Shown here piece after piece: positions 19,782-36,143 of a stretch of DNA of 64,000 nucleotides. Under the pieces are notes generated by a model that saw nothing but the letters and a program-made list of their open reading frames with translations, ran no database searches and was not told the origin of the DNA. A program made the translations under genes and the position numbers. Numbering within the stretch: position 1 is the stretch's first letter; every line of letters starts with the position of its first letter. This DNA comes from a virus, in IMG/VR virus record IMGVR_UViG_3300033141_003184, positions 4,936-68,935 of that record; one strand, written 5' to 3'.

Positions 19782-20156
19782 ATGGATCAAAAAATCAAAT
19801 CCGATCCTGGGATTAAAGATCAATCCCAGGATCAAATGGATAAAAATCAGATCATTGATGATCTGATAAAATCCATCAAATCATTAAATCCTAATAAATC
19901 TATTATTAGGATATCCAAAAAATCAATTATCGAGATGATGATCCGATATCCTGGGGGATCATCCCTTAAAGATATGGGATTAATGATCAAAAAATTAGGG
20001 ATTGATGATGATCTGGATAAAAATATCAGGGTATCCCGATTATGGATATCAAAATTAGGATATCGGATTATAAGGATAGGGGATCGATATTATCCTGATC
20101 CTGATGATCCCAATAATCCTGATCATCCGGATTATCAAAAAAATCATAAAGGATAA
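19782..20156 (+). CDS. Small DUF3489-like winged-HTH protein, paralogue 1 (GAT-coded)
   Basis: ISKKSIIEMMIRYPGGSSL..M...IKKLGIDDDLDKNIRVSRLWISKLG aligns with 22911..23207 and 35167..35667. ATG at 19782 follows the leader AAAATTTATCAATT, also used at 20702. Confidence 0.8.
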   Translation: MDQKIKSDPGIKDQSQDQMDKNQIIDDLIKSIKSLNPNKSIIRISKKSIIEMMIRYPGGSSLKDMGLMIKKLGIDDDLDKNIRVSRLWISKLGYRIIRIGDRYYPDPDDPNNPDHPDYQKNHKG

Positions 20157-20175
20157 AAATTTTATGATTTTATAA

Positions 20176-20216
20176 AAGGATAAGATTTTATAATCTTATC
20201 CTTATTATCCTTTTTT
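20176..20216 (+). terminator. Probable intrinsic terminator
   Basis: AAGGATAAGATT-TTAT-AATCTTATCCTT hairpin, then a T tract, after the 19782 ORF. Confidence 0.6.
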
Positions 20217-20322
20217 ATGGGGATATCTAAGATATCCCTAAAGACCCCCTATGATCCTGATCCAAATCAGGATATCAGGATTTCATGGGATACGATCTTT
20301 GATATTTTGATATGGGATAAAT

Positions 20323-20428
20323 GGGATTGATATAATATTCCGGGATTTCATCAATTTCTCCGGATTCCCGATCGGATCAGGATCAATCCGGGATAGGGGA
20401 TGAAATCCGGGAATCAAGGATCAATCCC
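20323..20428 (+). ncRNA. Long irregular hairpin upstream of an early gene (possible processing site)
   Basis: Nested pairs GGGATTGAT/ATCAATCCC, ATTCCGGGATTTCATC/GATGAAATCCGGGAAT and CCGGATT/AATCCGG. Confidence 0.55.
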
Positions 20429-20465
20429 GGAAACTTTTGTCTAACTTTATAAAAATTTATTAATC

Positions 20466-20696
20466 ATGAAAAGTCCGTTAAAAGAGGCTTTAATGAAAGC
20501 CAGGAAAGATTATGAAAAAAAGGAAATGCCCGTGGATTATTATAAAATTAAAATCCTTGAGGCTTTGGAATCAGATTATGATGATGTCTATGATGAAATA
20601 AATATCATCAGAGCACTTTCAGAAGTCACCCGGGTGTTATCGGATGAATTATTGGAAGATATGAAAATCTTGGATAAAGAAGAATATTTTGATTAA
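20466..20696 (+). CDS. Hypothetical acidic early protein
   Basis: 76 aa, D/E-rich C-terminal half; TGTCTAAC leader. Confidence 0.75.
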   Translation: MKSPLKEALMKARKDYEKKEMPVDYYKIKILEALESDYDDVYDEINIIRALSEVTRVLSDELLEDMKILDKEEYFD

Positions 20697-20715
20697 TCTT
20701 AAAAATTTATCAATT

Positions 20716-20817
20716 ATGAAAACCATGGAAAGAAAAGCAGATATGAATAGATTGTTTGGATTGGCAATGTTTGTAATTGCAGTCATATCTTTGATGATTA
20801 TGATTGCATCAATCTGA
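20716..20817 (+). CDS. Small single-TM peptide (33 aa)
   Basis: MKTMERKADMNRLFGLAMFVIAVISLMIMIASI; same leader as the 19782 ORF; followed by a terminator. Confidence 0.6.
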   Translation: MKTMERKADMNRLFGLAMFVIAVISLMIMIASI

Positions 20818-20819
20818 TT

Positions 20820-20855
20820 AATAGGGGGATCAAAAATGATCCCCCTATTTTTTTT
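20820..20855 (+). terminator. Intrinsic terminator
   Basis: AATAGGGGGATCA-AAAA-TGATCCCCCTATT followed by a T run. Confidence 0.9.
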
Positions 20856-20994
20856 ATCATTTTATATCTTTATGAAACTACAGAAATAAATCCTATCAAT
20901 TATCTTTTTTGAAACTCAGGAATGCCCAGGAAATTACGGGAAAGAAAGTTGTGAATTAAATCTTTTGAAACTCCCAAAAAAATTCAATTATTTC

Positions 20995-21026
20995 TTTGGA
21001 TTTTCCCGGATTTCTCCTGATCTTTA
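20995..21026 (+). promoter_or_regulatory. Bacteroidota-type sigma70 promoter variant
   Basis: TTTG-N20-GATCTTTA, against the consensus TTTG-N19-21-TAnnTTTG. Confidence 0.5.
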
Positions 21027-21084
21027 ATATTGGATTAAAAGATATAATAAATTTCAATGTCTAACTTTATAAAATTAATTAATC

Positions 21085-21606
21085 ATGAAAACTTTAGAAG
21101 AATTATCAAAATCAAACGCCGATGAATATCGGGAAGAAGTCGAGGGATATATGATCTCGGCGACTGAAGCTCTGGTAAAAAGAGCATTCTTATTACGACA
21201 GAATGCTATTTATCGCTCGTGTAACCCGGGAATGCCGAAAGATAAGTCTCTTGATGAGACTGATCAAATCATTCGTGGAGGAGATCAATATCTGAGGGAA
21301 TATGAAGACATTATGATGATGTCTTGGAAAGTCTCCTCTGTGAATCTAAATGGGGTAAGGGAAGTCGTAGTCGAAAATGTTCCGGACGAACTCCTGGAAC
21401 TCGGAGAAAAGGCTATAAGGGATAACCTAAAAGGAAATCCCGATAATGAGAAGAGAGAAGGGAAAGGAACAATAATTGCTCCAATTACGAATTGGGCGGA
21501 GGTGTTTGAACTGGCATTATCATCATTATCTGAAATTCTTCCTCTTCCTTATGATATATTTGAGGGAGCATTTTGGATAGAAGATGGAAAATTCTATTTT
21601 AACTAA
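21085..21606 (+). CDS. Hypothetical early protein
   Basis: 173 aa; AATGTCTAAC leader. Confidence 0.8.
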   Translation: MKTLEELSKSNADEYREEVEGYMISATEALVKRAFLLRQNAIYRSCNPGMPKDKSLDETDQIIRGGDQYLREYEDIMMMSWKVSSVNLNGVREVVVENVPDELLELGEKAIRDNLKGNPDNEKREGKGTIIAPITNWAEVFELALSSLSEILPLPYDIFEGAFWIEDGKFYFN

Positions 21607-21655
21607 ATCAATAAAATCAAGTAACCATTGTTAAACTCAAAAAACAATTACAATC

Positions 21656-21901
21656 ATGAAAGCAACAATTCACTGCATGCCAGACATGTGTAAACAAAAA
21701 GACAACGAAAAATTGGATCAGTTTGATGATCTTCTATATGCCGGGATGAGCAATGAAACACTCGAGGGAGCTGAACTGGATATAAACGAACTCCTCCATG
21801 ATGTTTATCCTCGCTCCTATTACTACACAGCAATGGAAGATGATGAACTCAATATTTTGGAAGGAGGATCGTGTAGAGTACTTATATCATTCCATAAGTA
21901 G
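21656..21901 (+). CDS. Hypothetical acidic early protein
   Basis: 81 aa, acidic; AT-rich leader ACAATCATG. Confidence 0.75.
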   Translation: MKATIHCMPDMCKQKDNEKLDQFDDLLYAGMSNETLEGAELDINELLHDVYPRSYYYTAMEDDELNILEGGSCRVLISFHK

Positions 21902-21950
21902 GTTGGTCCATGAGGAGGATTTAGGAGGGTTCGATTCCCTCCCTAACCAC
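21901..21950 (+). ncRNA. tRNA-like element (acceptor stem plus T-arm, no anticodon arm)
   Basis: GGTTGG(21901-06)/CTAACC(21943-48) stacks on GGAGGG-TTCGATT-CCCTCC, 12 bp in total; small GG-containing D-like loop. Confidence 0.6.
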
Positions 21951-21975
21951 AATGTCTAACCAAAACATTCTAATT

Positions 21976-22257
21976 ATGGTATACAAAGATCAAATATTAA
22001 CTCATCCCGCGTATCCGGGAAGGCGGTTTAAGCAGGTAAATCGGAGAACCGCCAGGAAACTCTATGATCAAGGGAGACCTGTGTTACTCCATCCGAGTAA
22101 CATGATCTTCAATAACGTTTGGCAGGCTCCATTGGAAATTTCAAATGGAGACGGAATCGACTTCGAGACTCACTTATACAATTTTGAATTCTACATGCCT
22201 TCGGAACTCGGAAGGTATGTGCATTTCTTTGTTGATGTTAACCCTAAAAGCAAATAA
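21976..22257 (+). CDS. Hypothetical early protein
   Basis: FKQVNRRTARKLYDQG...ELGRYVHFF; ATG at 21976 follows the AATGTCTAAC leader. Confidence 0.75.
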   Translation: MVYKDQILTHPAYPGRRFKQVNRRTARKLYDQGRPVLLHPSNMIFNNVWQAPLEISNGDGIDFETHLYNFEFYMPSELGRYVHFFVDVNPKSK

Positions 22258-22283
22258 TTATAAAAGAATTAAATTATAAAATC

Positions 22284-22715
22284 ATGAAAACAAAAGACTT
22301 AAAACCAGGAATGCTCGTATTTCATCGAGAATGGGATCGACGTACAAGTAATCCAATGAAGGTTATTTCCCAGAATGGGAAGATAATGCTACTCCCGATC
22401 CCGAATCCGGAAAATCTCCCACCGACTGAACCATTAGCAGGTGGAGAATCAGACGATGGTTGGGAAGAATTGAAAAGAATGGAAACAATAAAGACTCTCT
22501 CTTTTCGAATGAAAAAGCTCTCCGACAAGGAAGTGGAAGAGCTTTATAAAGTGTGGCCGGCATTGGAAACTCCTTATGCTGTAGCAGAATTCGGATCATG
22601 GGGACTCATCACAATTCCAATGGTTCCAAATGGAGCTCAGATGTATTATGTAGAGATCGACATTGAAGGAGGAGGAAGAGATGTTTGGTATGAAATTATC
22701 GACTCCGTTATTTAG
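22284..22715 (+). CDS. Hypothetical early protein
   Basis: 143 aa; N-terminal DLKPGMLV SH3-like start. Confidence 0.7.
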   Translation: MKTKDLKPGMLVFHREWDRRTSNPMKVISQNGKIMLLPIPNPENLPPTEPLAGGESDDGWEELKRMETIKTLSFRMKKLSDKEVEELYKVWPALETPYAVAEFGSWGLITIPMVPNGAQMYYVEIDIEGGGRDVWYEIIDSVI

Positions 22716-22761
22716 ATTCATTATAAATTAGGGGGTCAGGGTCAAATTTTTCTCCGATTTC

Positions 22762-22793
22762 CTTGCCATTACCAAAATGACATCATATATTTA
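22762..22793 (+). promoter_or_regulatory. Bacteroidota-type promoter upstream of the ribozyme cassette
   Basis: CTTG-N20-TATATTTA. Confidence 0.5.
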
Positions 22794-22828
22794 TAGTGAT
22801 CTTTAGATCAGGAACAAATGAGTTCATT

Positions 22829-22888
22829 GACATTCTGATGAATCCAAAAGGACGAAACCGGGATTACGGGATAACCCCGGTCAATGTC
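22829..22888 (+). ncRNA. Type I hammerhead ribozyme (HHR1)
   Basis: Stem I GACATT/AATGTC; core CTGATGA 22835-41; stem II (A)TCC-AAAA-GGA(C); GAAA 22854-57; stem III ACCGGG-a-TTA/TAA-c-CCCGGT; GUC cleavage after 22882. The stem II closing pair is A.C rather than G-C. Confidence 0.85.
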
Positions 22889-22910
22889 TAACTCAAAAAA
22901 TTTTTAAGTT

Positions 22911-23207
22911 ATGGAAACTGTGGAAACTATTCAAGCAGCTGTAGTAAACCCCAAGGAAGGGAAAACTACCAGGGAAGCTCAGGAAACTGAGAAAAAACCC
23001 CGGGTTACAAAAAAGTCCGTGGTGATTGAATTGATCTCAAAAGGTGATGGAGCTACCGTCAACCAGATTGCAAAGGAAATTGTCAGGAGAGGGATCGACG
23101 CCGATCTTGAGAAAAACAAGAGAGTAGTACGTCTCTGGCTCAGCAAGCTCGGAATGCCTGTGCAACGAGATAAAGAGACCGGAAAGTACACTCCTGTTAA
23201 GAAGTAG
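22911..23207 (+). CDS. Small DUF3489-like winged-HTH protein, paralogue 2 (ribozyme-flanked)
   Basis: TKKSVVIELISKGDGATVNQIAKEIVRRGIDADLEKNKRVVRLWLSKLG. Confidence 0.85.
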   Translation: METVETIQAAVVNPKEGKTTREAQETEKKPRVTKKSVVIELISKGDGATVNQIAKEIVRRGIDADLEKNKRVVRLWLSKLGMPVQRDKETGKYTPVKK

Positions 23208-23271
23208 ACATTCTGATGAGACCTGATTAGGTCGAAACCCGGATCACCGAGTTGACCCGGGTCAATGTCTA
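23205..23271 (+). ncRNA. Type I hammerhead ribozyme (HHR2)
   Basis: Stem I TAGACATT/AATGTCTA; CTGATGA 23213-19; stem II GACCT-GATT-AGGTC; GAAA 23234-37; stem III ACCCGG-a-TCA/TGA-c-CCGGGT; GUC cleavage after 23263. The core is fully canonical. Confidence 0.95.
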
Positions 23272-23467
23272 AGAATAAAGCATGATTATTTGTTTTGGAC
23301 TTGATATAAAAACATAAAAAACACCCCAAAATTCGCCCGTACATTTTAATCTGATGGACTTTTACGGGTGGAGTAATGGTCTATATTGGATCGGGGGTGA
23401 AAGTCGCTCAGATCAAAAGGAATTTTTTTTCATTATATTTAATGTCTAACCCAAAAAACAAATGCCT

Positions 23468-23638
23468 ATGACGAAAGAACAAGAAAATGAATTAAAAAAG
23501 CTTCAGGAAAGAATAAATTTTCTGAAGGACCTCCTCTGTGATCCTAAGAGGATCGCTGCAGGAGACTTTTCCCGAAAAGAAATACGGGAAGAAATTCACG
23601 ATTTAGAAAAGTTTATTAACTCTCGAAAAACAAAGTAA
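23468..23638 (+). CDS. Small coiled-coil protein (56 aa)
   Basis: MTKEQENELKKLQERINFLKDLL...; preceded by the AATGTCTAAC leader; below the ORF-track cutoff. Confidence 0.65.
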   Translation: MTKEQENELKKLQERINFLKDLLCDPKRIAAGDFSRKEIREEIHDLEKFINSRKTK

Positions 23639-23639
23639 A

Positions 23640-24167
23640 ATGAAACATTTAATCAAATTTAATCATTCCGCAAGTAGCTTTCATGAAGCCATCGGAGTTG
23701 ATAAAAACGTTCAATTTGAAGTTTTGGAAAAATTGAAAGAGATGGACTTAGAGAGCTCTACTAACTCGGAGGTTGTTGAAAAAGCGTTTTCCGAATTCAA
23801 ATCAAAAGAGATCAAATCCGTGAGAGAAGTGTTGATTCCCTTATTACTTGGATTGAATATGTTTAACAAACTTGGAAAGGTTGCCCTCATGGCATCACAA
23901 GCACCGGAAGACGGGAAAGAAAGAGAACCAGTGATCGAGTTTGAATTCGATCACTCAAAAAGGAACTTAAATGAAGCCGTGTGGGGAGAGAATTACGAGG
24001 AGACTCTCTTAAAAGTTGGTTCGTGGGAGAAAGGATTTTTTCTAAAGAATGATAATGGAGAATATCTTTCACCATTATCAAAAGTGGTAGAAGATATATT
24101 AAAGGTGGGAGAGAGTGACGAAACCATTTTCTCCGCCTTCATCCTGCTTGGCTCGATAGGAAAGTAA
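23640..24167 (+). CDS. Hypothetical protein, F[ND]H-repeat family member 1
   Basis: IKFNHSASSFHEAIGVDK and internal repeat FEFDHSKRNLNEAV. Confidence 0.8.
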   Translation: MKHLIKFNHSASSFHEAIGVDKNVQFEVLEKLKEMDLESSTNSEVVEKAFSEFKSKEIKSVREVLIPLLLGLNMFNKLGKVALMASQAPEDGKEREPVIEFEFDHSKRNLNEAVWGENYEETLLKVGSWEKGFFLKNDNGEYLSPLSKVVEDILKVGESDETIFSAFILLGSIGK

Positions 24168-24196
24168 AGAAAGGGGAAAATTCCCCCTTTCTTTTT
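24166..24196 (+). terminator. Probable intrinsic terminator
   Basis: AAAGAAAGGGGAA...TTCCCCCTTTCTTT then T tract. Confidence 0.6.
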
Positions 24197-24220
24197 GTTT
24201 AACCGTAATATTATAAAATC

Positions 24221-24700
24221 ATGGAAATAAAAATAACATTTGACCATGACTCTCATTCTCTTGAGAGAGCTATTTTTATAAATGACAAACCATTGGAACG
24301 TTACCTACCATCAAAAGTAGGGAAAACGAAAATAGGAGTATTACTCTCCATGGAATTGAATTCCTCTAACGGCAAGAGTGATAACGAGATTAGTGATTCT
24401 TTACTGAAAATATCACTCATACCGGAGGAAACGAGAATATCGTCAGTTCTTACCTTGGGTATGCTGAGATTCAGTGAAAATCCAAAGATAAGAAACGTAT
24501 TAGAACAGAAGTTAAGGAAGATATCCAACGACATGGTTTATCTGTACGGAGCTAACTACCAAACGAGGTGGTCAAAAATAATAGAATTAATTCTAAAAGA
24601 GGAAGATAATGGAAATGATGTTTACTCCTTGTACCTGCTTGGAGTACTGCTCGGCTTTCATCCATTTGTAATAGAAAAGACTCATTCATTTCTTAATTAA
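24221..24700 (+). CDS. Hypothetical protein, F[ND]H-repeat family member 2
   Basis: ITFDHDSHSLERAIF N-terminus; WSKIIELILK. Confidence 0.75.
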   Translation: MEIKITFDHDSHSLERAIFINDKPLERYLPSKVGKTKIGVLLSMELNSSNGKSDNEISDSLLKISLIPEETRISSVLTLGMLRFSENPKIRNVLEQKLRKISNDMVYLYGANYQTRWSKIIELILKEEDNGNDVYSLYLLGVLLGFHPFVIEKTHSFLN

Positions 24701-24725
24701 AAAAATTAAAAATTTCGAGAAAAAA

Positions 24726-24757
24726 TTTGGGTCATAAAAATGTCCTGATTATCTTTA
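24726..24757 (+). promoter_or_regulatory. Bacteroidota-type promoter
   Basis: TTTG-N20-TATCTTTA. Confidence 0.55.
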
Positions 24758-24774
24758 TAAAAAGATGAGAAACT

Positions 24775-25005
24775 ATGACAATAAAATGTGAGAACTCGGT
24801 CTATTCATTTAGATATTTTGAAAAAAGACATAACGAAGCGATAGTACCAGGAATAAAGGTAACCGGGAAGAATGAAGCCATTCTATACCGGATAAACAAA
24901 ACCTGGATTTCCTATGAGGATGATCTGTTAATTCCAGCGGATCATATTTGGAAATTTATTGATATTATTGAACAAATCTACATCTTTGATGATCAAAAGA
25001 ATTAA
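24775..25005 (+). CDS. Hypothetical protein
   Basis: 76-aa ORF after the promoter. Confidence 0.6.
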   Translation: MTIKCENSVYSFRYFEKRHNEAIVPGIKVTGKNEAILYRINKTWISYEDDLLIPADHIWKFIDIIEQIYIFDDQKN

Positions 25006-25190
25006 AACGATGAAAAAGGAACAATTTATTAAACAACTCAATAAATTTATCAGGAAAAACATAAAAAAAGACTGTCGAGCTTGTGAAGAAGAAATGGAAA
25101 AAATTGAACTTGTAACCAGAAAAAGAATTCCATTTGTTGTAACTTTCAGACCTGATTATGACAGTGGAGAAGGATGGCATATTGAGGTAG

Positions 25191-27047
25191 ATGAGGAGTA
25201 AAAATTATAAATTAAAGAAAAGGATCGCTGAAGAACAAAATATCCCACAAGTATTCTCAGCGATCCTCCTGGAAGAGTCAAGCGTGGGGTATTATTTATG
25301 GAATGGTAACAATGTAGATCGGTGGATCAGGAAAGAGTGGATAAAGAAAATATGGGATGAGAAAAAAGAAATCGAGAAACCAAAAGATCATTATATATAC
25401 CATAGAAAAAAGAAGTTGAAGAAAGTGAACAAAGCTATTTATATAGAAGGAGATTTAATAAAGCTCACATTTAAGTTTTCATTTGATCTGTTAGATAAAG
25501 TAAGATCATTACCGGGTAGAAAATACTACAGCCAGGAAAAATACTGGACTGTTCCAATATATCCAAAAACGATTCATCTTCTAAAAGAATGGGGATTTGA
25601 ACTGGACGAAAGAATAAGAGAAGTACTCGAAAACAGGAAGAGAGACAAACTAAAAATATCGAGATTCAAAGGAGAGTTATATCCATTTCAGAAAGACGGA
25701 GTAGCTTTTGTAGAAGCCAATAATGGTAAGGCTCTTATTGCTGATGACATGGGTTTGGGAAAAACAATCCAGAGTATAGCATGGATTCAGATGCATCCGG
25801 AATTGACTCCGGTACTAATCGTGTGTCCGGCATCATTAAAGCTGAATTGGAAAAAAGAAATAGAAAAATTTACCGAAGGAAGAGATATAGAAATACTATC
25901 AGGAGTATTTCCATGGGAACCGACTGGCGATACTTTGATAATAAATTACGATATATTGACTCATTGGGAAAGTACTCTCAGTAAAACAAGACCACAAGTA
26001 TTGATTGCTGATGAGTGTCATTATTTTAAGAATCCTTCAGCAAGAAGAACAAAATCAATAATGAGATTAGGCAGAAGAATCCCTCATATAATTACTCTTT
26101 CGGGGACTCCAATACTAAATCGACCCATAGAAGCTTTCAATGCTCTTAAACTGATAGCACCTGACCTATTTCCAAGTTATTGGAAATATGCTCATCGTTA
26201 CTGCGGAGCAAAACATAATGGTTTTGGTTGGGATTTCTCAGGAGCTTCCCATACTGATGAACTTCACCATTTATTGAAATCGTCGGTAATGATAAGAAGA
26301 TTAAAAACAGATGTATTAAAGGAATTACCAGAAAAGATAAGATCGTTCATTCCAATAGAGTTAAAGAATAAAAAAGAATATGAATCAGCAGAAATAGATT
26401 TTGTAAGATTTATATACCAAACCAAAGGAAGAGAAGCCGCAAAGAAGATAAGAAATACATCAGCTCTATCATCTATCGAGGGATTAAAACAATTAGCTGT
26501 AAAAGGGAAAATAGATCAGGTAATAGAGTGGATCAAAGATTTTTTACAGATCGAAGACAAACTGGTCGTATTTGCCATACACCGGCATGTCATTGATTAT
26601 TTAATGGGAGTATTTGGCGATATAGCGGTTAAAGTAGATGGATCAGTGTCAGGAAAAAAAAGACAAGAAGCCATAGATAGATTTCAAAATGACGCAAAGA
26701 TAAAATTATTTATCGGAAATATTAGAGCTGCCGGAGTAGGCATAACCCTCACAGCTTCTTCGACAGTAGTTTTTATTGAATTACCATGGACTCCGGGAGA
26801 ATTAATTCAAGCTGAAGATAGAGTTCATAGGATAGGTCAAAGAGAATCGGTAAACATATATTATCTATTAGCCGTAGGAACAATAGAAGAGAGAATAGCA
26901 GGTATTATAGACAACAAAAGGAAAGTATTAGATCAGGTATTAGATGGGAAGGAACCAGAAAGAGATTCGCTTTTAAGAGAGTTATTAGATCAATATAAAA
27001 AAGAATTTAAGCAGGATTTCGAAGAAGAATATGATGTTCAACCATAA
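25191..27047 (+). CDS. SNF2-family helicase (SMARCAL1/HARP-like)
   Basis: LIADDMGLGKT, DECH, LSGTPILNRP and QAEDRVHRIGQ motifs; HARP-like N-domain. Confidence 0.95.
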   Translation: MRSKNYKLKKRIAEEQNIPQVFSAILLEESSVGYYLWNGNNVDRWIRKEWIKKIWDEKKEIEKPKDHYIYHRKKKLKKVNKAIYIEGDLIKLTFKFSFDLLDKVRSLPGRKYYSQEKYWTVPIYPKTIHLLKEWGFELDERIREVLENRKRDKLKISRFKGELYPFQKDGVAFVEANNGKALIADDMGLGKTIQSIAWIQMHPELTPVLIVCPASLKLNWKKEIEKFTEGRDIEILSGVFPWEPTGDTLIINYDILTHWESTLSKTRPQVLIADECHYFKNPSARRTKSIMRLGRRIPHIITLSGTPILNRPIEAFNALKLIAPDLFPSYWKYAHRYCGAKHNGFGWDFSGASHTDELHHLLKSSVMIRRLKTDVLKELPEKIRSFIPIELKNKKEYESAEIDFVRFIYQTKGREAAKKIRNTSALSSIEGLKQLAVKGKIDQVIEWIKDFLQIEDKLVVFAIHRHVIDYLMGVFGDIAVKVDGSVSGKKRQEAIDRFQNDAKIKLFIGNIRAAGVGITLTASSTVVFIELPWTPGELIQAEDRVHRIGQRESVNIYYLLAVGTIEERIAGIIDNKRKVLDQVLDGKEPERDSLLRELLDQYKKEFKQDFEEEYDVQP

Positions 27048-27059
27048 ATACTTAAAACT

Positions 27060-27275: not shown

Positions 27276-27296
27276 ATCACTTAAAATCCTACAATC

Positions 27297-28658: not shown

Positions 28659-28696
28659 TTTCGAAAAATCTAAACACAGAAGTAAATAATCAAATT

Positions 28697-29011: not shown

Positions 29012-29435
29012 TTATAAGAACTACCTTAAACTAATTCAAAAAATAACCTGGTCATTCTATAAAACCACAGGGGTGGATTGGAATGATCTATTTCAAGAAG
29101 CTTTCTTTGGTTATTTGGAAGCTAAAGAGAAATATGATCCGAAGAAAGGAAAGTTTTCATCATTCTTATGGATCACTATATCAAGTAGATTAAAAAAGTA
29201 CCTACGAAAAGAAATGGAATTTAGGAAAATAGAAGTAGTAGATTGGGAATTAGAGTCATATTCGCCTCAAATTTCAATCGAAACCACAGAGATATTAAAC
29301 TCAATAGCTGAGAATATAGGAGAGTTTATTAATTTATCAAAGAAGGAAATCACAAAAAAGATTTACGAAGTAATGCTAAAGAAAGGATGGTCATTTACTA
29401 AAACCAAGGAAGTCCTACAAGAATTATGGATATAA
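29004..29435 (+). CDS. Sigma-70 region 2-containing protein (phage sigma factor-like)
   Basis: DWNDLFQEAFFGYLEAKEKYDPKKGKFSSFLW. Confidence 0.8.
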   Translation: MNDYKNYLKLIQKITWSFYKTTGVDWNDLFQEAFFGYLEAKEKYDPKKGKFSSFLWITISSRLKKYLRKEMEFRKIEVVDWELESYSPQISIETTEILNSIAENIGEFINLSKKEITKKIYEVMLKKGWSFTKTKEVLQELWI

Positions 29436-30355
29436 TAAGATTATACCAAGATTACGGAGTAAATTACAAAACAGAAGGACATAAACATTGTCGTCCAGGT
29501 TGGGTAAATACGGAATGTCCATTTTGTACCGGGAATCCTGGTTATCATTTGGGGTATAATCTTAAAGGAAACTTCTTTACTTGTTGGCGGTGCGGATGGC
29601 ATCCTGTTATTCCAACCATAGCGAAATTGATAGGAACTTCCGTTCAGGAAGCTAAGAGGATAGTATCCAGTTATGGAATGTACATTCCAAAGAACGAGAA
29701 GATAGAGCTAATAGAACAAAGGAATGAACACAAATTACCATCAGGAGCAGGTCCATTATCTCGTCAACATAAGAAGTACTTGGAAAAAAGGGGGTTTGAT
29801 CCTGATAAACTGGAGAGAGAGTGGAATTTGTTAGGAACGGGTCCGGTAAGCAAATTAGATAATTCCGATTATAAACATAGAATAATAATTCCATACATAT
29901 GGAAAAGACAACAAGTATCATTTCAATCACGTGATATTACTGGGAAATCACCAGCAAAATATAAAGCATGTCCAACTAACAGAGAGTTAATTCATCATAA
30001 ACATATACTCTATGGTGATGAACGATTGTGGGGAATGGAAGGTATATGCGTGGAAGGTCCGATAGATGTTTGGAAACTCGGAAAGAAGGCGTTTGCCGTA
30101 TCAGGAATAAAGTACACAAGATATCAATTACTGGAAATCTCAAGGAGATTTAAGCGAGTATTTGTTGTCTTTGATAATGAATCACAAGCAATCTCACAAG
30201 CTGAAAAATTAGCTGGTGATTTGCGATTTCTCGGTGTGGAAACCATAAGAATCCAAGTAGACGATGATCCGGGAAACATGAATTTAGATGATGCTGAGCA
30301 CTTTGTACGTCAATTATTATCAAGAAGATATAAAATAACGATAAAAAAATATTGA
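29426..30355 (+). CDS. DNA primase (Zn finger plus TOPRIM)
   Basis: CPFC...CWRCG; VEGPIDV; VFDNE; DDPG. Confidence 0.88.
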   Translation: MDIIRLYQDYGVNYKTEGHKHCRPGWVNTECPFCTGNPGYHLGYNLKGNFFTCWRCGWHPVIPTIAKLIGTSVQEAKRIVSSYGMYIPKNEKIELIEQRNEHKLPSGAGPLSRQHKKYLEKRGFDPDKLEREWNLLGTGPVSKLDNSDYKHRIIIPYIWKRQQVSFQSRDITGKSPAKYKACPTNRELIHHKHILYGDERLWGMEGICVEGPIDVWKLGKKAFAVSGIKYTRYQLLEISRRFKRVFVVFDNESQAISQAEKLAGDLRFLGVETIRIQVDDDPGNMNLDDAEHFVRQLLSRRYKITIKKY

Positions 30356-30362
30356 ATATTAT

Positions 30363-30393
30363 TTTGATCTTCAAGGATTTATATTTATTTTTG
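30363..30393 (+). promoter_or_regulatory. Canonical Bacteroidota sigma70 promoter
   Basis: TTTG(30363-66)-N19-TATTTTTG(30386-93). Confidence 0.65.
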
Positions 30394-30416
30394 GGTGATC
30401 CATAATTGATAAATTT

Positions 30417-30515
30417 AATGGTGATGAATATTAGTGAGACATAATTTTTAGGAAATCCCGGGAGGAGAACCTATCAACCATATTCATCACCATTCCTCCC
30501 GGGTATTTCCTTTTT
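30417..30515 (+). promoter_or_regulatory. Attenuator-like leader: terminator hairpin whose loop is complementary to the upstream leader
   Basis: AATGGTGATGAATAT(30417-31)/ATATTCATCACCATT(30480-94); stem AGGAAATCCCGGGAGGA/TCCTCCCGGGTATTTCCT plus T tract. Confidence 0.7.
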
Positions 30516-30535
30516 AATATTAAGAACTCTGACAA

Positions 30536-30883
30536 ATGTTACCTGATGGTTGGGAAATAAGGAGGGTTGGTCGTAGAATCTTATCACATCCGATTTTAAG
30601 TAAATCGGCTAAACTTCTTTATACATCTATATTATTGAATACAAATGATGGGAGAACAGTCAGAGATTTGGAAGATATGCGATATTCCCTTAAAATAACA
30701 AAATCTGATTTTGAAAGAGCTAAAAAAGAATTAATAGAATACGGATTAATCAAAAAAGAAAAAAGACACTGGATATTTTACAGGAACCCTCATCCCAGGA
30801 ATGGGAAGGTTATAAGAGATATATTAGATTGGTGTATGATGGTTCCTAAGGGAGAGGAATCTCCATGTATAAGTATGAATTAA
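30536..30883 (+). CDS. Small winged-HTH protein
   Basis: LSKSAKLLY...FERAKKELIEYGLIKK. Confidence 0.7.
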   Translation: MLPDGWEIRRVGRRILSHPILSKSAKLLYTSILLNTNDGRTVRDLEDMRYSLKITKSDFERAKKELIEYGLIKKEKRHWIFYRNPHPRNGKVIRDILDWCMMVPKGEESPCISMN

Positions 30884-30914
30884 ATAAATGTAAAAATAAT
30901 TTGGAGGATTAGTT

Positions 30915-32081
30915 ATGGAAAAGTATGATACTATGGAAAATGTTCTATTGGAGAAAGGTTGGAATGGTGTAATTCCATATCAATCACAATCAAACTATGT
31001 TTTATTTTCAAAAACCCTGAGCGACTCCTCAAAAGTGGCTTATTTCATCATGATTTCATTAATGGGAAGTGGAATAGAGGTATCACCAAAAATCATCCAG
31101 GAAAAAATGGGATGTGGAAAACAGAAAATGGGAACAATAACTAAAGAGTTGAGAAAAGAAGGATTATTAGAATCAATTCCAGATTATGACAAAAGTACAA
31201 AACGATTTATCGGATCACATTGGAAAGTGAATTTACCTGAAAATTCCAAATACCTACCAGACCACCAGACACCCCCGCCCACCAGACAACCCTGCCAAGC
31301 GGGGGTGTCTGGTCCTTACTTTACTAATAACATTAATACACATAATATCATAGATATTATATATACTAATAACATTAACAAAGAGTATATATCTAATATC
31401 ATTGGTCGAGATAAAAATTTACCTAAATCTTCCAAAAGAACTAATTCTTCCAAACCTCTTAGCAGGAAAAGTACAAAACCTAAACACATAACCGTCCAAC
31501 CCTTACTAAATTCCTCCTCCAATGAAATTATTTCAATGGAATCGGAATTTAGTTCAGAAACTAAGGAACACCCAAATTCGAAAACCAGAGAACACCCGCA
31601 AGTTTCACAAGAGGAACACCTCCAAATGTTAAAGTATGAACATCGGGCGAGGCGCCTCGCTCACGACATTCGTAGGTCAAAAAACATAAAGTTTACCACC
31701 AGACAAAAAAAGTCGTGGGCTATGGATATTAAGAGACTTGTCGAACAAAACGAGGTTTCTCTCCAACGCATAGATAAAGTTCTAAAGTGGTATGAGGGGA
31801 GACTCGGAGGAAGATATGTTCCAGTTGTTGAGTCGGGAAGAGCGTTCCGTGAGAAGTTTATTCGATTGGAGTTGGCTATGTATAGAGAAAAAAGAGAGGA
31901 AAGGGAAAGAAATCAAGAACAGAAAAGTTTTTATGGAGAACCAATAGAAACCAAACCAAAGACCCAACGAAAAATGAGTCCGGATATTATAACAAAAGAG
32001 GATAGACCTTCATTTCTTTATCCGTCCTGGAAGATTGTTGACGAAGAAGAAGAGGAACGGAGCTTATTAGAAAAGATTTAA
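30915..32081 (+). CDS. Replication initiator-like HTH protein
   Basis: N-terminal wHTH (LSDSSKVAY...KELRKEGLL), low-complexity linker with DNA repeats, C-terminal domain; upstream of the helicase. Confidence 0.7.
   Translation: MEKYDTMENVLLEKGWNGVIPYQSQSNYVLFSKTLSDSSKVAYFIMISLMGSGIEVSPKIIQEKMGCGKQKMGTITKELRKEGLLESIPDYDKSTKRFIGSHWKVNLPENSKYLPDHQTPPPTRQPCQAGVSGPYFTNNINTHNIIDIIYTNNINKEYISNIIGRDKNLPKSSKRTNSSKPLSRKSTKPKHITVQPLLNSSSNEIISMESEFSSETKEHPNSKTREHPQVSQEEHLQMLKYEHRARRLAHDIRRSKNIKFTTRQKKSWAMDIKRLVEQNEVSLQRIDKVLKWYEGRLGGRYVPVVESGRAFREKFIRLELAMYREKREERERNQEQKSFYGEPIETKPKTQRKMSPDIITKEDRPSFLYPSWKIVDEEEEERSLLEKI
31256..31627. repeat. Probable replication origin within the initiator gene
   Basis: 15-bp IR ACCAGACACCCCCGC (31264-78/31299-313); ACCAGAC x3; TACTAATAACATTAA x2 in an AT-rich tract; GAACACC x3 at ~24-bp spacing (31565-31620). 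Confidence 0.6.
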
Positions 32082-32150
32082 GGGATTTTTACGGGTCAGA
32101 TGGTATAAGACATTGGTGATGGAGTAAAAGCAAAAAGTACGTAGGTAAAA

Positions 32151-33710
32151 ATGGCTAATACAGACATGTTTGAGCGTAGGATCATAATCGGGCTGATAAC
32201 CTCCACTAAATTTCTCCAGAATATAGAAGAAGTTTGGGATTCATCATTATTGGAATCCTCCATAGCAAGAAGAGTAGCAGATTGGGTATGGGAATACTTT
32301 CAGAAATTTGGGAAAGCTCCGGGAAAGGATATGGAAAATATATATCTTTCCAAATTGAAGGATGGAGAGATACCTGATCAGTTATCGGACGAGATAGAAA
32401 GTGGAGTGTTGTCAGGGTTATCGGAAGAGAGTATAGAAGAACCTATTAATGTTGATTATCTGCTTGAGCAGACCTTCCGATATCTTAACGAAAGAAAGTT
32501 GTTACTACATGCCAGTGGGATTCGATCATTAATAGCAGAGGGAAAGCTGGAAGAGGCTAACAAATTGGCTTGTGGATATTCTCCGATAGAAAGTTCAGGA
32601 GAGACTGACATTGATTTATCAAATCCAAAAGTATTACCGAGGATTAAGAAAGCTTTTGATATTCCAAAGGATATTCTTGTAAAATATCCTAAACAGTTAG
32701 GAGAGTTTTGGAATCACCAGTTCATAAGGGGAGGATTCATAGCGTTTCTTGCTCCTGAAAAAAGAGGGAAATCATTTTGGTTGTTAGATGTAGCTGTAAG
32801 GGCATATAGACAAAAGAGAAGGGTGGCTTTCTTTCAGGCGGGTGATATGACTGAAGATCAACAATTAAGAAGGATAAGCATATATCTCACCAAAAAGAGT
32901 GATCTTGCTAAGTATTCGGGAAAACAATGGGAGGTGGTAAGAGATTGTGTTTATAATCAGTTAAATACTTGTAGTAAGAAGGAAAGGGAAAGTGATTTTG
33001 GAGTATTTGATGGAGAATCGAAGCATGATTTGAAAGAGAAGACGGTAGATGATCTCATAGAGGCCTATAAAAATAATCCTGATTACAAACCATGTTATAA
33101 TTGTCCGCAGTATGAGAGCAGTAGATGGGGAGTTCCTTGGGTGAAGGAATTAGACATGGGAGAACCACTAACGGCAAAAGAGGCTATGCGTAGTGTTCAG
33201 AAGTTTTTTGTGAAGAGTGGAAGATCGTTTAAGTTGTCTACTCATCCGAATAATACTTTAACAGTTCAAAAGATTAGATCGATCTTGATGCAGTGGGAAA
33301 AGAGGGATGGATTTGTTCCTGATTTGATCGTAATCGACTATGCTGACATTATGGATCATCCGGGAAGATTGGAATTCAGACATAAACAAAATGAGATTTG
33401 GAAGGGATTAAGAAGCATATCGCAAGAATGGCATTGTTTAGTAGTTACAGCTACCCAGGCTGATGCTGGTAGTTATAGAACGGAGATATTAAGAATGTCG
33501 AATTTCTCAGAGGATAAGCGTAAGCTTGCTCATGTGACAGCTATGTACGGATTAAATCAGGACCCGAGCGATAGAGAAAAGAAGATAGGATTAATGAGGA
33601 TAAACGAGATAGCTATAAGGGAAGGTGATTTTACAAGTTCAAATAAAATAACAATACTACAAGACTTAAAACGGGGACGACCGTTCTTAGGTAGTTTCTG
33701 GTCTATTTGA
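32151..33710 (+). CDS. DnaB-like replicative helicase
   Basis: APEKRGKS Walker A, IVIDYADIM Walker B, VVTATQ; Cys-rich insertion. Confidence 0.88.
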   Translation: MANTDMFERRIIIGLITSTKFLQNIEEVWDSSLLESSIARRVADWVWEYFQKFGKAPGKDMENIYLSKLKDGEIPDQLSDEIESGVLSGLSEESIEEPINVDYLLEQTFRYLNERKLLLHASGIRSLIAEGKLEEANKLACGYSPIESSGETDIDLSNPKVLPRIKKAFDIPKDILVKYPKQLGEFWNHQFIRGGFIAFLAPEKRGKSFWLLDVAVRAYRQKRRVAFFQAGDMTEDQQLRRISIYLTKKSDLAKYSGKQWEVVRDCVYNQLNTCSKKERESDFGVFDGESKHDLKEKTVDDLIEAYKNNPDYKPCYNCPQYESSRWGVPWVKELDMGEPLTAKEAMRSVQKFFVKSGRSFKLSTHPNNTLTVQKIRSILMQWEKRDGFVPDLIVIDYADIMDHPGRLEFRHKQNEIWKGLRSISQEWHCLVVTATQADAGSYRTEILRMSNFSEDKRKLAHVTAMYGLNQDPSDREKKIGLMRINEIAIREGDFTSSNKITILQDLKRGRPFLGSFWSI

Positions 33711-33943
33711 TGTTTAATTAAAATTTTTTGTTATGGAAGAGAATTACAAAAAAATCAGAAAGATTAACGAAGGAATACTTAATACTCTCAAGTACTTGAG
33801 AGAGATAGACCTTCCGGAGGATTCTCAACAAAGACTCATTCTCTATCTCACTAAAGTGAGCAAAGAACTTCAACTGGTTATGTTGGAACAGCTCCAATTA
33901 GAAGAAGAGTTAGTATGAAAATTAATCAGTAAAAATTAAAATT

Positions 33944-34306
33944 ATGTATGCAATCACAAAGGAATTTACATTTGCTGCTGGACATTTCTTGGAAAAGCTC
34001 CCTTTCGAGCATAAATGTTCCAGATTACACGGGCACAATTACTCAGTTATCGTGGAGTTACGTTCAGACTCTCTCAATGCATCAGATTTCGTATTGGATT
34101 ATGACGAGTTACGTCATTCAATCGGGAAATGGTTAGACGAGCATTGGGATCATAGGGTTCTTAATGATGTGATGTCTGTTAATCCATCTGCTGAGAATAT
34201 GGCAAAAGTATTATATCGGATATTCAAAACCTTATTTCCAAATCTCCTGTACTCTGTTACAGTAAAGGAGACAGATAAAACAACTGCTAAATATTGGGAA
34301 GAATGA
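33944..34306 (+). CDS. queD: 6-carboxytetrahydropterin synthase
   Basis: FAAGH...KCSRLHGHNY...DHRVLN...PSAEN...VKET. Confidence 0.93.
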   Translation: MYAITKEFTFAAGHFLEKLPFEHKCSRLHGHNYSVIVELRSDSLNASDFVLDYDELRHSIGKWLDEHWDHRVLNDVMSVNPSAENMAKVLYRIFKTLFPNLLYSVTVKETDKTTAKYWEE

Positions 34307-35091
34307 GTAAGAAAATAATTAGCTTTGGAGAATTAAGAAGTCCTTACGATAATTTAATTAGTCGCCTAAAGCCGGGAAAGGAAAATGAGCCAAAATTATT
34401 TGTGTCGGAATTATTTTCGGAAACTATACAAGGGGAGGGGGTTACAGTAGGTACTCCTGCTGTGTTCCTAAGATTAGGTGGGTGTACATTAAACTGCTCC
34501 TGGTGTGACACCAAAGAAATATGGAATACCGGTAAGAAGTATCCTATTTCTACATTGGCAGGAATTATGAATATCTCGGGAATTTTAGCAGACTTTACAT
34601 TCTATAACTCTTTTGTAATTACCGGTGGTAGTCCTCTGTTACAACAAAAGGGGATAATAAAGCTGTTACATACTATTAAAAGAGAGTTTAATATTTCTCC
34701 TTCTGTGGAAATAGAGAATGAGTGTGTAATCAAACCAGACAAAAGACTTATTCCTTTGGTTGATGTTTGGAATAATTCCCCAAAGTTGAGTAATTCCGGT
34801 AATCCAAAGGATAAAAGGTATAAGCCAGATATAATAGAATTCACTGCTAATCTTCCTAATTCATGGTTTAAGTTTGTAGCAGGTTCAGAAAAGGATATTA
34901 AAGAAATAATGGATGATTTTTTGTTCCCTAAACTGATTCGAAGGGAGCAGGTTTTGCTTATGCCGGAAGGAAACACCAGAAGGAAGCAAAGGGGAAATAG
35001 TGAAAGAGTAATTGAGTGGTGTAGAAAATATGGATTTCGTTATTCTCCACGACTCCAGGTTCTCCTTTGGGATGATTCTTTGTCGGTTTAA
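34303..35091 (+). CDS. queE: 7-carboxy-7-deazaguanine synthase (radical SAM)
   Basis: TIQGEG, FLRLGGCTLNCSWCDT (CxxxCxxC), ITGG.PLLQ, SPKL, LMPEG, SPRLQ. Confidence 0.92.
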   Translation: MSKKIISFGELRSPYDNLISRLKPGKENEPKLFVSELFSETIQGEGVTVGTPAVFLRLGGCTLNCSWCDTKEIWNTGKKYPISTLAGIMNISGILADFTFYNSFVITGGSPLLQQKGIIKLLHTIKREFNISPSVEIENECVIKPDKRLIPLVDVWNNSPKLSNSGNPKDKRYKPDIIEFTANLPNSWFKFVAGSEKDIKEIMDDFLFPKLIRREQVLLMPEGNTRRKQRGNSERVIEWCRKYGFRYSPRLQVLLWDDSLSV

Positions 35092-35166
35092 TTTTTCTCG
35101 AGAATTCCAAATTATTTTATTTGGTTTGGATATTATAATAATAGATAACTTAAAAAATATTTGATT

Positions 35167-35667
35167 ATGTCTACCAAAATTTCAAGAAAACAGCTTGAGA
35201 AGGTCGCTCAGGAACTGAATGACGTTCTCGGATTAAAGCCTCCGATATCTATTAGTAAAGATGACAGAAGATTATTGGAGGGTGTTCGTCGTGGTATCAG
35301 GTACATTGACTGGGAAGCCGATGAATTTTCTGAAGAGACTTCCGATCTTATCAATAAGATTATTGAGGATTGGGCAGAGGAATATGAGAAAAGGGAAGAA
35401 GAAAAGAAGAAGGCTAAAGAAAAAGAACCAAAAAAGAAAGAGAGGAAATCTAAGACCGGAGCGGTAACTAAGAAATCGGTTATTGTGGATATGATTTCCA
35501 GGGAAGGTGGAGCTTCTATTGAAGAAATCTCCAGAGAGATTGAACGACTCGGGATCGATTCAGATCACGAGAAAAACCTTCGGGTGGTTCGTCTTTGGTT
35601 ACGGAAGATGGGATATGATGTAAGATTAAAAGAAGTGGGAAATACTGATAAAATTCGTAAAAAGTGA
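35167..35667 (+). CDS. Two-domain protein with C-terminal DUF3489-like wHTH, paralogue 3
   Basis: C-terminus TKKSVIVDMISREGGASIEEISREIERLGIDSDHEKNLRVVRLWLRKMG. Confidence 0.8.
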   Translation: MSTKISRKQLEKVAQELNDVLGLKPPISISKDDRRLLEGVRRGIRYIDWEADEFSEETSDLINKIIEDWAEEYEKREEEKKKAKEKEPKKKERKSKTGAVTKKSVIVDMISREGGASIEEISREIERLGIDSDHEKNLRVVRLWLRKMGYDVRLKEVGNTDKIRKK

Positions 35668-36140: not shown

Positions 36141-36143
36141 GCT

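Follow-up and report, generated by a model that had tools for sequence, protein, structure and literature searches.

A predicted winged-helix domain family at the junction of replication genes and DNA-modification islands in a clade of uncultured phages

Introduction

The phage gene clusters for 7-deazaguanine modification combine FolE, QueD, QueE, QueC, DpdA, DpdL, DpdM and DpdN (PMC10516641). The main text of this 2023 Nucleic Acids Research survey, which defines DpdL, DpdM and DpdN, is concerned with the enzymes by which the base is synthesised and inserted; the terms 'winged' and 'DNA-binding' have no occurrence in that main text (as distinct from its supplements), and no winged helix-turn-helix (wHTH) partner is described there. 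Here we describe a family of small basic domains, confidently predicted to be winged helices, of which three copies are encoded in one 64,000-nucleotide stretch of viral DNA, hereafter the window: bases 4936-68935 of the complete 68,935-bp IMG/VR record IMGVR_UViG_3300033141_003184, which has terminal repeats. One of the copies lies in a gene cluster that is like the known ones in its FolE, QueD, QueE-like and DpdA-like proteins, and QueC-less clusters are among those described; it is unlike them in its methyltransferase (MTase), a class-I Rossmann enzyme, whereas DpdM in the main text of the survey is a DUF3109 protein (PMC10516641).

An earlier note, made from the letters of the window, had proposed that the three copies belong to a single system in which a DNA-binding protein reads or shields modified phage DNA. 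For the binding of modified DNA by a protein of the phage that carries it, there is a functional precedent in TF1 of phage SPO1, a phage-encoded histone-like protein that prefers the hydroxymethyluracil DNA of its phage. TF1 is an HU-type (type II DNA-binding) protein and not a winged helix; its likeness to the present family would lie in the idea of function only. Modification-dependent nucleases offer another comparison: in its treatment of these enzymes, PMC12191111 restates a modular sensor-plus-nuclease model with an inactivated EndoIII as the sensor. Three members of the present family (P0027, P0031 and L056) are alike in modular layout, with the wHTH domain fused to a NucS_C nuclease; they are unlike in that the putative sensor would be a wHTH domain.

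Three paralogs of one domain in a single genome

The three copies, all in open reading frames (ORFs), are as follows:

19782..20156, + strand: ORF1, a short wHTH protein of 124 aa, the first + strand gene past the spacer next to the terminase small subunit gene (terS), with a recoded amino-acid alphabet
22911..23207, + strand: ORF2, a short wHTH protein of 98 aa, lysine- and glutamate-rich at its N-terminus
35167..35667, + strand: ORF3, the 'long form' of 166 aa, with a three-helix N-domain (residues ~1-65), a charged helical linker and the wHTH domain (residues ~95-166; 35446-35664)

A C-terminal block of ~65 aa is common to all three, 25 columns being invariant in a three-way alignment, and each pair is detected by tblastn (ORF2-ORF3, E 4e-17; ORF1-ORF3, E 6e-12; ORF1-ORF2, E 2e-8). 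When all six frames of the complete 68,935-bp record were searched with the profile, exactly these three copies were recovered. The motif that the earlier note had seen in three ORFs is thus real, with correct coordinates and no fourth copy in the record. On this sequence similarity, we regard ORF1, ORF2 and ORF3 as true paralogs of one small basic winged-helix domain.

The relationships of the copies were examined in a quick tree of the domain, with support from the Shimodaira-Hasegawa-like approximate likelihood-ratio test (SH-aLRT) only and with 76 of its 123 forks unresolved. ORF3 falls within a starred group to which 40 of the 42 long forms belong. Outside that group, in different clusters, are ORF1, ORF2 and the early genes of two relatives of this genome (G000), namely G001 (100% complete) and G002 (94% complete), with ORF2 grouping with clusters P0002 and P0003 (SH-aLRT 98). 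As ORF1 and ORF2 lie outside the long-form group, the three paralogs appear to be old, separate subfamilies, many unresolved forks notwithstanding; this is a point new to the present analysis. It rules out recent gene conversion among the three, and the notion that they constitute one system is likewise not supported, because the paralogs fall in different old subfamilies. Two further loci, L002 and L003, show weak matches with 30% identity.

A basic winged helix related to DUF3489

An AlphaFold2 model of the wHTH domain, built from a 9-sequence alignment, has a predicted local distance difference test score (pLDDT) of 90.1 and the topology H1-strand-H2-H3-beta-hairpin, with helices at 6-14, 22-31 and 38-51, a bridge at 20 and strands at 56-58 and 65-67. 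A model of full-length ORF3 (pLDDT 89.7) shows the same winged-helix topology at the C-terminus; hence, the domain is confidently predicted to be a winged helix. Its structural neighbours in Foldseek and VIA-align searches are all generic winged helices, such as Fur, forkhead, H5, ArgR and MecI (Foldseek E >= 0.025, Z ~5); Foldseek against PDB and BFVD gave no matches at E<=1e-3, and a search of PDB sequences with the domain profile recovered nothing significant (best E 1.4). The domain is basic, with a median net charge of +6; of 102 domains, 99% are positive. Conservation is strongest in TKK, which caps H1, in a GxDxD loop and in the KN..LW..K.G of helix 3, whose residues are near-invariant across 111 clusters; helix 3 is the usual recognition helix of winged helices. 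Pfam-type profile searches matched neither the ORFs nor the family members to an RNA-binding family at any threshold.

The earlier note had remarked by eye on a resemblance to DUF3489 (PF11994). This match is real for ORF2 (20.1 bits) and ORF3 (20.5 bits); it is, however, below the gathering cut-off of 29.5, spans only profile positions 4-31 and 3-31, respectively, of 68, and is missing for ORF1 even at E<=10. A six-frame search of the genome against DUF3489 gave 20.7 and 18.1 bits. DUF3489 is also the only recurring Pfam family among the members, found at E<=0.01 in 57 of 111 (best E 3e-5); a DUF3489 protein is the top structural match in BFVD (E 0.016, template-modelling (TM) score 0.57), and the nearest Atlas structures are DUF3489 clusters (TM 0.42-0.51). 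The two are alike in the N-terminal 'TKKS...GAT' half, whereas the conserved KN.RV.RLW..K.G helix lies outside the matched part. Because the match is real yet sub-threshold and partial, we treat DUF3489, a bacterial and phage wHTH family without characterised function, for which a full-text search gave a single paper that merely names it (PMC4520260), as the closest known relative and not as the family itself. Beyond it, NCBIfam yielded no match for ORF2 or ORF3, and the sole PHROGs match was a weak one to phrog_10315 (E 4e-4 and 2e-3), to which no function is assigned.

Linker histones H1/H5 and forkhead proteins are alike in fold (FoxP, FoxA and FoxO at Foldseek E 0.04-0.1; H5, 1hst, at Z 4.7), and the linker histones also in having a lysine-rich tail beside the winged helix. 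The likeness is at the level of the common fold only: the tail in the present family is N-terminal and combined with acidic runs, and Linker_histone (PF00538) matched none of the three ORFs at E<=10 and none of 111 members at E<=0.01.

Searching 1.84 billion representatives exhaustively with the profile delimits the family to 112 clusters at E<=1e-3 (99 at E<=1e-10), with the domain C-terminal in 107 of the 112. It is essentially confined to uncultured viral or metagenomic DNA: the nearest Atlas clusters are 96-100% viral; 50,697 GenBank phage records had no match to positions 19000-36200 by megablast or to ORF2 and ORF3 by tblastn; and two pattern scans of the genomes of 185,579 species (A3, and A13 for the nuclease-fusion group) gave no confirmed relative. 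An IMG/VR scan with the early-1 subfamily returned G001 alone, which was already known. A metagenome scan returned 10 loci, including two new members (L056 and L058) and G001 again (L057); the other seven were dropped as chance 'SRLWISKLG' matches in glycosyltransferase-like proteins or as marginal. The family was not found in full-text literature searches.

Members come in short forms of ~80-140 aa with a lysine-rich N-terminus and in long forms that share the layout of ORF3, i.e. the N-domain, acidic and lysine-rich linkers, sometimes a middle domain, and then the wHTH domain. The N-domain of ORF3, with the long-form motif ..aAkELN.vlGL.P.I...D.fS..T.., is common to 27 other representative clusters of the 112 and can be aligned across 36 long forms; it has no convincing structural match (Z <= 5.1; for full-length ORF3, Z <= 5.4 in a wide VIA search). 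Many long forms carry Asp/Glu runs of up to ~100 residues, while the acidic segment of ORF3 is short. Other N-terminal modules also occur, among them the NucS_C nuclease in P0027 and P0031. In L056, the wHTH domain is fused to a NucS_C PD-(D/E)xK-type nuclease (26.3 bits; cut-off 24) in a neighbourhood that does not look phage-derived, with beta-lactamase-family, BlaI-like and BlaR1-like genes. The wHTH domain is presumptively used as a targeting module in these nuclease fusions.

The C-terminal domain of the long form changes with the modification island

IMG/VR pattern scans recovered a clade of phages with SNF2, a sigma factor, primase, DnaB, the modification island, clamp and PolA in common. 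A domain of the type found in ORF1-3 (hereafter the TKKS domain) is encoded in the replication/modification region of 12 contigs, and in 11 of these a class-I S-adenosylmethionine (SAM)-dependent MTase, 55-70% identical across the relatives, lies downstream: the two genes are directly adjacent in nine contigs, ~1 kb apart in L023 and 1.2 kb apart in the window, and the twelfth contig ends at the wHTH gene. The earlier note's link between the long form and the deazaguanine cluster is borne out to this extent: the long form is a conserved member of the cluster in this phage clade. In four of the contigs (L020, L021, L024 and L027), no match to the N-domain hidden Markov model (HMM) was detected, and the wHTH domains group with representatives that have other N-terminal modules. 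The gene order in L020 is DnaB, wHTH, MTase, QueD, QueE, so that the pair is intact despite the displacement of queD and queE.

Another 14 loci have the N-domain and lack both the TKKS domain and the MTase. The N-domain and linkers are kept in these loci, and the protein ends in a different domain of ~60-70 aa, which in L038 is TrmB/HTH_24-like at sub-threshold level. The next gene in the loci without the TKKS domain encodes either QueC (E 3e-54) or the first of a pair of radical-SAM and pyridoxal phosphate (PLP)-dependent enzymes. Quick trees of primase, clamp and DnaB, with SH-aLRT support, show the MTase, QueC and radical-SAM/PLP island types interleaved: for instance, the MTase-type L019 is sister to the radical-SAM-type L037 (SH-aLRT 99), and the QueC-type L036 groups with the radical-SAM-type L029 (97). 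The starred branches force at least two changes of island type on the clamp and DnaB trees. Pairwise identities of the two ends of the long form are as follows:

L036 and L029 (QueC; radical-SAM/PLP): N-domain 82%, C-domain 22%
L019 and L037 (MTase; radical-SAM/PLP): N-domain 55%, C-domain 20%
L019 and L018 (both MTase): N-domain 46%, C-domain 52%
L037 and L029 (both radical-SAM/PLP): N-domain 46%, C-domain 45%

As the N-domain is kept while the C-domain changes with the island type, the breakpoint must lie inside the gene, in the linker. Judged from these alignments and trees, the N-domain goes with the replication backbone and the C-domain travels with the modification island.

The third island type is itself distinctive. 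In L029 (4664-6507) and L037 (6060-9306), the gene for the N-domain protein is followed by those for radical-SAM enzymes and a PLP-dependent enzyme, and FolE, QueD, QueE and DpdA were not detected in either island. This island may represent a different DNA hypermodification pathway, set in a backbone nearly identical to that of the QueC-type L036.

The deazaguanine cluster around ORF3

Around ORF3, the window encodes the following:

33944-34306, + strand: queD (PTPS, E 8e-30)
34294-35091, + strand: queE-like radical-SAM gene (Fer4_12 and Radical_SAM pass Pfam cut-offs; top NCBIfam matches all QueE, below equivalog cut-offs)
35664-36140, + strand: Dam-family N6-adenine MTase (PF05869, E 8e-33)
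36144-36827, + strand: homing-endonuclease-like gene (NUMOD3, DUF559)
36824..37690, + strand: class-I SAM-dependent MTase (Methyltransf_23, E 1e-13; also Methyltransf_25, 11 and 12)
37692-38261, + strand: folE (NF006825, 251 bits against a cut-off of 174)
38258-39322, + strand: putative DpdA-like transglycosylase gene (phrog_887, queuine tRNA-ribosyltransferase, E 5e-57; no Pfam or NCBIfam match)

FolE, QueD and QueE, the set by which a phage 7-deazaguanine cluster is recognised, are thus represented, and the placement of ORF3 between queE and a Dam-family MTase gene is borne out by its QueD, QueE-like, Dam, FolE and DpdA-like neighbours. QueC is needed for preQ0; its profile (PF06508) found nothing in the complete genome, with the control positive in 14 of 14 genomes.

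The link to Dam that the earlier note had drawn did not survive comparison: a Dam homolog was not detected in any related locus, the adjacency is peculiar to this genome, and Dam is accordingly ruled out as a conserved partner. Together with the homing-endonuclease-like gene it makes up the 1.2-kb gap between ORF3 and the class-I MTase gene, and the two look like a mobile insertion. The nearest solved sequences to the class-I MTase are an mRNA cap N7-MTase (guanine-N7; a weak match, E 3e-5) and generic MTases. DpdM, as defined in the main text of the survey, is a DUF3109 protein with CxxxCxxCC (PMC10516641), so the present enzyme, which matches class-I families, is a different one, and its identification as DpdM is ruled out. 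It is also found beside DpdA in more distant phages without the wHTH protein (L076, L077, L078 and L081), in the order DpdA, MTase, QueD, QueE, FolE in L076 and L081. These contexts raise the possibility that QueC-less deazaguanine pathways use it as an enzyme so far undescribed.

Some neighbouring genes merit separate mention. The DpdA-like gene of G001 (L009:3434-5413) and that of L015 encode 659 aa, with an insert of ~300 aa that splits the homology to the 354-aa protein of the window; in G001, the tblastn matches cover 3384-4027 and 4949-5410, and this looks like an intein or homing-endonuclease insertion. Only the first ~150 residues of the DnaB proteins of G001, G002 and L015 match in one piece, which suggests a similar interruption. 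In the window, an ORF of the polymerase region (41185-42441) combines a domain of the uracil-DNA glycosylase (UDG) superfamily (E 2e-21) with a 3'-5' exonuclease domain, and a sigma-70 region-2 protein is encoded at 29004-29435.

The first early gene and GAT-only DNA

Two further features define the setting of ORF1:

17983..18612, - strand: terS (phrog_309, E 7e-36), at a strand switch from which the early operon diverges
19349..20430, no strand: 'GAT-only' DNA, GATC-rich, in which almost all G-runs are followed by AT and almost all C-runs preceded by AT

The sign of the GC skew changes at ~19-20 kb, near this strand switch. Within 19349-20430, AT follows 92 of 97 G-runs and precedes 83 of 92 C-runs; the dinucleotide GC is absent (21 expected), GT occurs twice (55 expected) and AC four times (53 expected). 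Between 19375 and 20419 there are 27 GATC sites, and the GAT-rule score in 400-nt windows is 0.97-0.98 against a genome median of 0.18. ORF1 lies wholly within this stretch, as the earlier note had stated. Alanine, threonine, valine, cysteine and glutamate together make up 1.6% of ORF1 against a family median of 33%, and the conserved residues of the family are nonetheless kept.

In all three of the complete or near-complete genomes compared (G000, G001 and G002), a short TKKS-type gene comes first once a spacer of 1.1-1.2 kb has been passed, on the side divergent from terS; hence, the first-gene position noticed earlier is conserved. Twelve ORFs from the interval between ORF1 and SNF2 were compared with G001 and G002, and only the two wHTH genes had a clear match there, with one other marginal (E 2e-4). 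The GAT rule at the early-gene site scores 0.84 in G002, is weak in G001 (0.40) and is absent in G008; words such as ATCAGGAT, with eight copies each in the window's genome and in G002, are shared. Three more clusters (P0020, P0093 and P0095) have ~2% of the same five amino acids against the family median of 33%. Thus, GAT-type recoding of the first early gene recurs beyond this genome. In G002, the composition of the first early wHTH protein (39688-40089, - strand) is skewed towards D, L, N, P, I and K. The gene for it and the spacer up to 41307 are GATC-rich, with 15 GATC sites in the 1.2-kb spacer, and a counterpart of the window's Dam was not detected in this genome.

G008 has a QueC-type island and another C-domain in its long form. 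Its first early gene, 92 aa and separated from terS by a 1.9-kb spacer, carries that same other C-domain (E 1e-12). With the TKKS type in G000, G001 and G002 and the other type in G008, the early gene and the long-form C-domain match across ~15-20 kb in two domain types. Elsewhere in the early region of G001 (L001:12921-13700), there are overlapping ORFs of pentapeptide-like ANLQG/ADLQR repeats.

ORF2, hammerhead-type ribozyme candidates and a shared leader

ORF2 is flanked by two candidates for self-cleaving RNAs:

22811..22887, + strand: HH1, hammerhead-type ribozyme candidate with the core CUGAUGA...GAAAC...GUC; predicted cut after 22882; 20.5 bits
23190..23268, + strand: HH2, hammerhead-type ribozyme candidate overlapping the ORF2 stop codon; predicted cut after 23263; 26.6 bits, E 0.076

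The pattern CTGATGA-N6-30-CGAAAC occurs exactly twice in the 64 kb, at 22835 and 23213 (0.04 expected by chance), and both candidates have the type-I hammerhead core CUGAUGA...GAAA and the cleavage triplet GUC. The flanking of ORF2 by two core sites thus holds as first described, with both below Rfam thresholds: no Rfam family matches in the window at gathering thresholds, and in E-value mode the above scores are to the RAGATH-1-hammerhead model (cut-off 56.3), the best of the other models being Hammerhead_1 (16.7 bits against 34) and HH9 (16.4 against 52). The minimum-free-energy (MFE) fold of HH2 is a three-stem type-I hammerhead with stem I open (-24.8 kcal/mol, z -3.6). The canonical fold of HH1 has -13.8 kcal/mol against an MFE of -15.7 (a gap of 1.9 kcal/mol), and its stem II, read off the sequence, is weak, with 3 bp plus an A.C mismatch at the base. 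The predicted cuts after 22882 and 23263 would free a 381-nt RNA carrying ORF2.

The + strand leader AATGTCTAA has five copies in 21056-23449, at 21056, 21951, 22883, 23264 and 23441, and six in the window (1.1 expected). It directly follows both predicted hammerhead cuts and, wherever the downstream ORF is clear, lies just upstream of or overlaps the start codon. The relatives do not repeat the hammerhead arrangement: no hammerhead core is present in any of their retrieved loci, so that the flanking of a wHTH gene is confined to this genome, and for the early genes on either side of ORF2 neither G001 nor G002 has a homolog. What G001 has is a twister-sister ribozyme (L010:7132-7202; 51.2 bits against an Rfam gathering threshold of 34, E 3e-8) between the second and third early genes, two genes downstream of the wHTH gene. 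It ends in CAATGTTTAAC, ~20 nt before a likely start codon, and this word is closely like AATGTCTAAC, found after both hammerheads in the window. Different ribozyme classes would therefore seem, by this sequence likeness, to deliver the same 5' leader. Given that the twister-sister lies elsewhere than at the wHTH gene and that the leader precedes several early genes, ribozyme-plus-leader processing belongs to the early operons and not to the wHTH gene, and the special tie between the two that had been suggested is not supported.

Two other observations concern this region. The 177 nt from the HH2 cut to the next leader (23264-23440) contain no ORF and may be a processed non-coding RNA. The genes at 23640-24167 and 28125-28658, a second small paralog pair in the early/middle region, have an N-terminal module of ~57 aa in common (44% identity, E 3e-7), starting MK..IKFNH.A.SF.E.IGVDK.

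Functional interpretation

We favour, with confidence somewhat short of even, a reading in which the family is one of DNA-binding modules, the long form serving as an adaptor at the junction of backbone and island and the short forms as free early DNA-binding copies. The observations on which this draws are the predicted fold, the charge, the conservation of helix 3, synteny, the domain swap and the paralog pattern. ORF1 would be the conserved first gene of the early operon divergent from terS; ORF2, an extra lineage-specific short copy that came by chance to lie between two hammerhead-type ribozymes of general early-transcript processing; and ORF3, a long form at the junction of the replication genes and the DNA-modification island. 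The long form would be an adaptor that tethers to DNA and acts in concert with the island: the N-domain, passed on with the replication backbone, would dock on a conserved phage partner, and the wHTH domain, passed on with the island, would bind phage DNA. The short forms would be free, early-made copies of the same module, whose probable target is the phage genome as it enters, which they would regulate or coat. Most likely, the three subfamilies have separate jobs and are not one co-evolving system. Of the earlier interpretation, the analysis supports one basic winged-helix family, the membership of the long form in the cluster, the tracking of the island by its C-domain, the first-gene position and the recurrence of GAT-type recoding; it does not support the single system, the links to hammerheads and Dam or a general tie to the chemistry.

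Several points weigh against the adaptor. Nucleic-acid binding by the wHTH domain is something we infer from the predicted fold and charge only, as we do the partner of the N-domain, the timing of expression and any dependence on modification; since the N-domain is without a convincing structural match, the docking assigned to it is guesswork. Every context derives from a single broad clade of phages that have their replication module in common, which makes the synteny counts non-independent, and ~100 of the 112 clusters lie outside the genomic-context counts. The C-domain and the island gene are adjacent, and block recombination at the repetitive, low-complexity linker would give the swap pattern without a functional link. 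When 16 loci were sampled by the MTase, 10 were known wHTH contigs, five were without such a protein (four of these with DpdA upstream of the MTase), and L073 had an analogous lysine-rich protein with another C-domain. In five MTase/DpdA-bearing records (two at least 90% complete, one 88%), the TKKS domain was found nowhere, which tells against the general tie to deazaguanine chemistry proposed earlier. The QueC islands have several mutually unrelated C-domains, those of L022 and L025 being 18% identical. Finally, of four records of other types that cover the early junction or are near-complete, G008 alone has an early paralog that matches. G007 and G009 span the junction and have no paralog of their own C-domain, and G012 (93% complete) is likewise without one.

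The foremost alternative, which we consider rather improbable although it deserves serious weight, is that these are ordinary phage proteins, either sequence-specific transcription regulators or nucleoid-type proteins, with no functional tie to modification, the pattern reflecting inherited gene order and recombination at the linker, with the GAT DNA and ribozymes incidental. The structural matches, being to generic wHTH regulators, would fit this well, as would the derivation of all contexts from one clade with SNF2, primase, DnaB, clamp and PolA in common, the existence of MTase/DpdA clusters without the domain, the heterogeneity of C-domains among QueC islands, and the presence of ribozymes and the AAUGU(C/U)UAAC leader at other early genes; moreover, a phage with a sigma factor of its own can be expected to control transcription in a phage-specific way. 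The near-invariance of helix 3 across 111 clusters, however, would be unusual with diverse operators and argues mildly against it. Also against it are the persistence of the TKKS domain beside the MTase in contigs without an N-domain HMM match, the adjacency of the pair after the queD/queE rearrangement in L020, and the correspondence, in two types, between the C-domain of the long form and that of an early gene 15-20 kb away. The tracking of island type by the C-domain across near-identical backbones and the matched early paralogs in two domain types can also be taken to mean that the domain tells the phage's 7-deazaguanine-type modified DNA from unmodified DNA, with early copies on the incoming genome and the long form acting during modification. 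To these may be added the early gene in single-G-context DNA (in G000 and G002 and, by amino-acid composition, in three more clusters) and the nuclease fusion, which fits the sensor-plus-nuclease layout of modification-dependent nucleases as restated in PMC12191111. We nevertheless regard such discrimination as unlikely: the chemistry also occurs where the domain is missing, domain and chemistry do not map one-to-one among QueC islands, G007, G009 and G012 are without early paralogs, QueC is absent, and the MTase is not DpdM, which is DUF3109 in the survey's main text (PMC10516641). An extended version of this idea, which we hold equally doubtful, would make the TKKS domain and its replacement C-domains 'readers' of the phage's guanine modification, with the long form reading or organising newly modified DNA at the island side of the replisome, the early protein recognising the incoming modified genome at the GAT-only zone by which it is itself encoded, and bacteria having captured the reader as the sensor of a modification-dependent NucS-type nuclease.

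Two further proposals seem to us highly improbable. Were the domain an RNA-binding winged helix, the short forms would bind processed early RNAs (the ribozyme products and the shared leader) instead of DNA; ORF2 would then leave on the 381-nt RNA between the two predicted cuts, the leader is common to five early sites, and an OST-HTH cluster is among the Atlas structural neighbours (TM 0.58, a lead only). The long form and the nuclease fusion, though, point to DNA, the G001 ribozyme is not beside the wHTH gene, and the family searches named above gave no RNA-binding match. The Asp/Glu runs of up to ~100 residues in many long forms could likewise, at a comparably slight probability, be anti-defence decoys, i.e. 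DNA-mimicking acidic stretches tethered by the wHTH domain that inhibit host nucleases or silencers. The acidic segment of ORF3 is short, however; acidic and basic runs alternate, as they do in many disordered linkers, and the profile and structure searches showed no similarity to known DNA mimics.

Significance

Even if binding proves not to depend on modification, the present analysis defines a family of 112 clusters with a stereotyped three-part architecture, and a conserved first early gene of a phage clade that is linked to GAT-only DNA in at least two genomes; the class-I MTase is, in addition, a recurrent, undescribed member of QueC-less DpdA clusters. The family is a cloneable candidate for a DNA-binding partner of deazaguanine clusters. 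It also comes with a natural experiment, in which near-identical backbones carry different islands and a change of island brings with it a change in the putative DNA-binding end of a single protein. If binding is modification-dependent, the domain would be a reader for deazaguanine-type DNA, of use as an affinity reagent and as a handle on how self is told from host DNA. On the extended version of the reader idea, no reader domain for 7-deazaguanine-type DNA would have been described before it, and the word-restricted zones beside the packaging genes in such phages would be accounted for.

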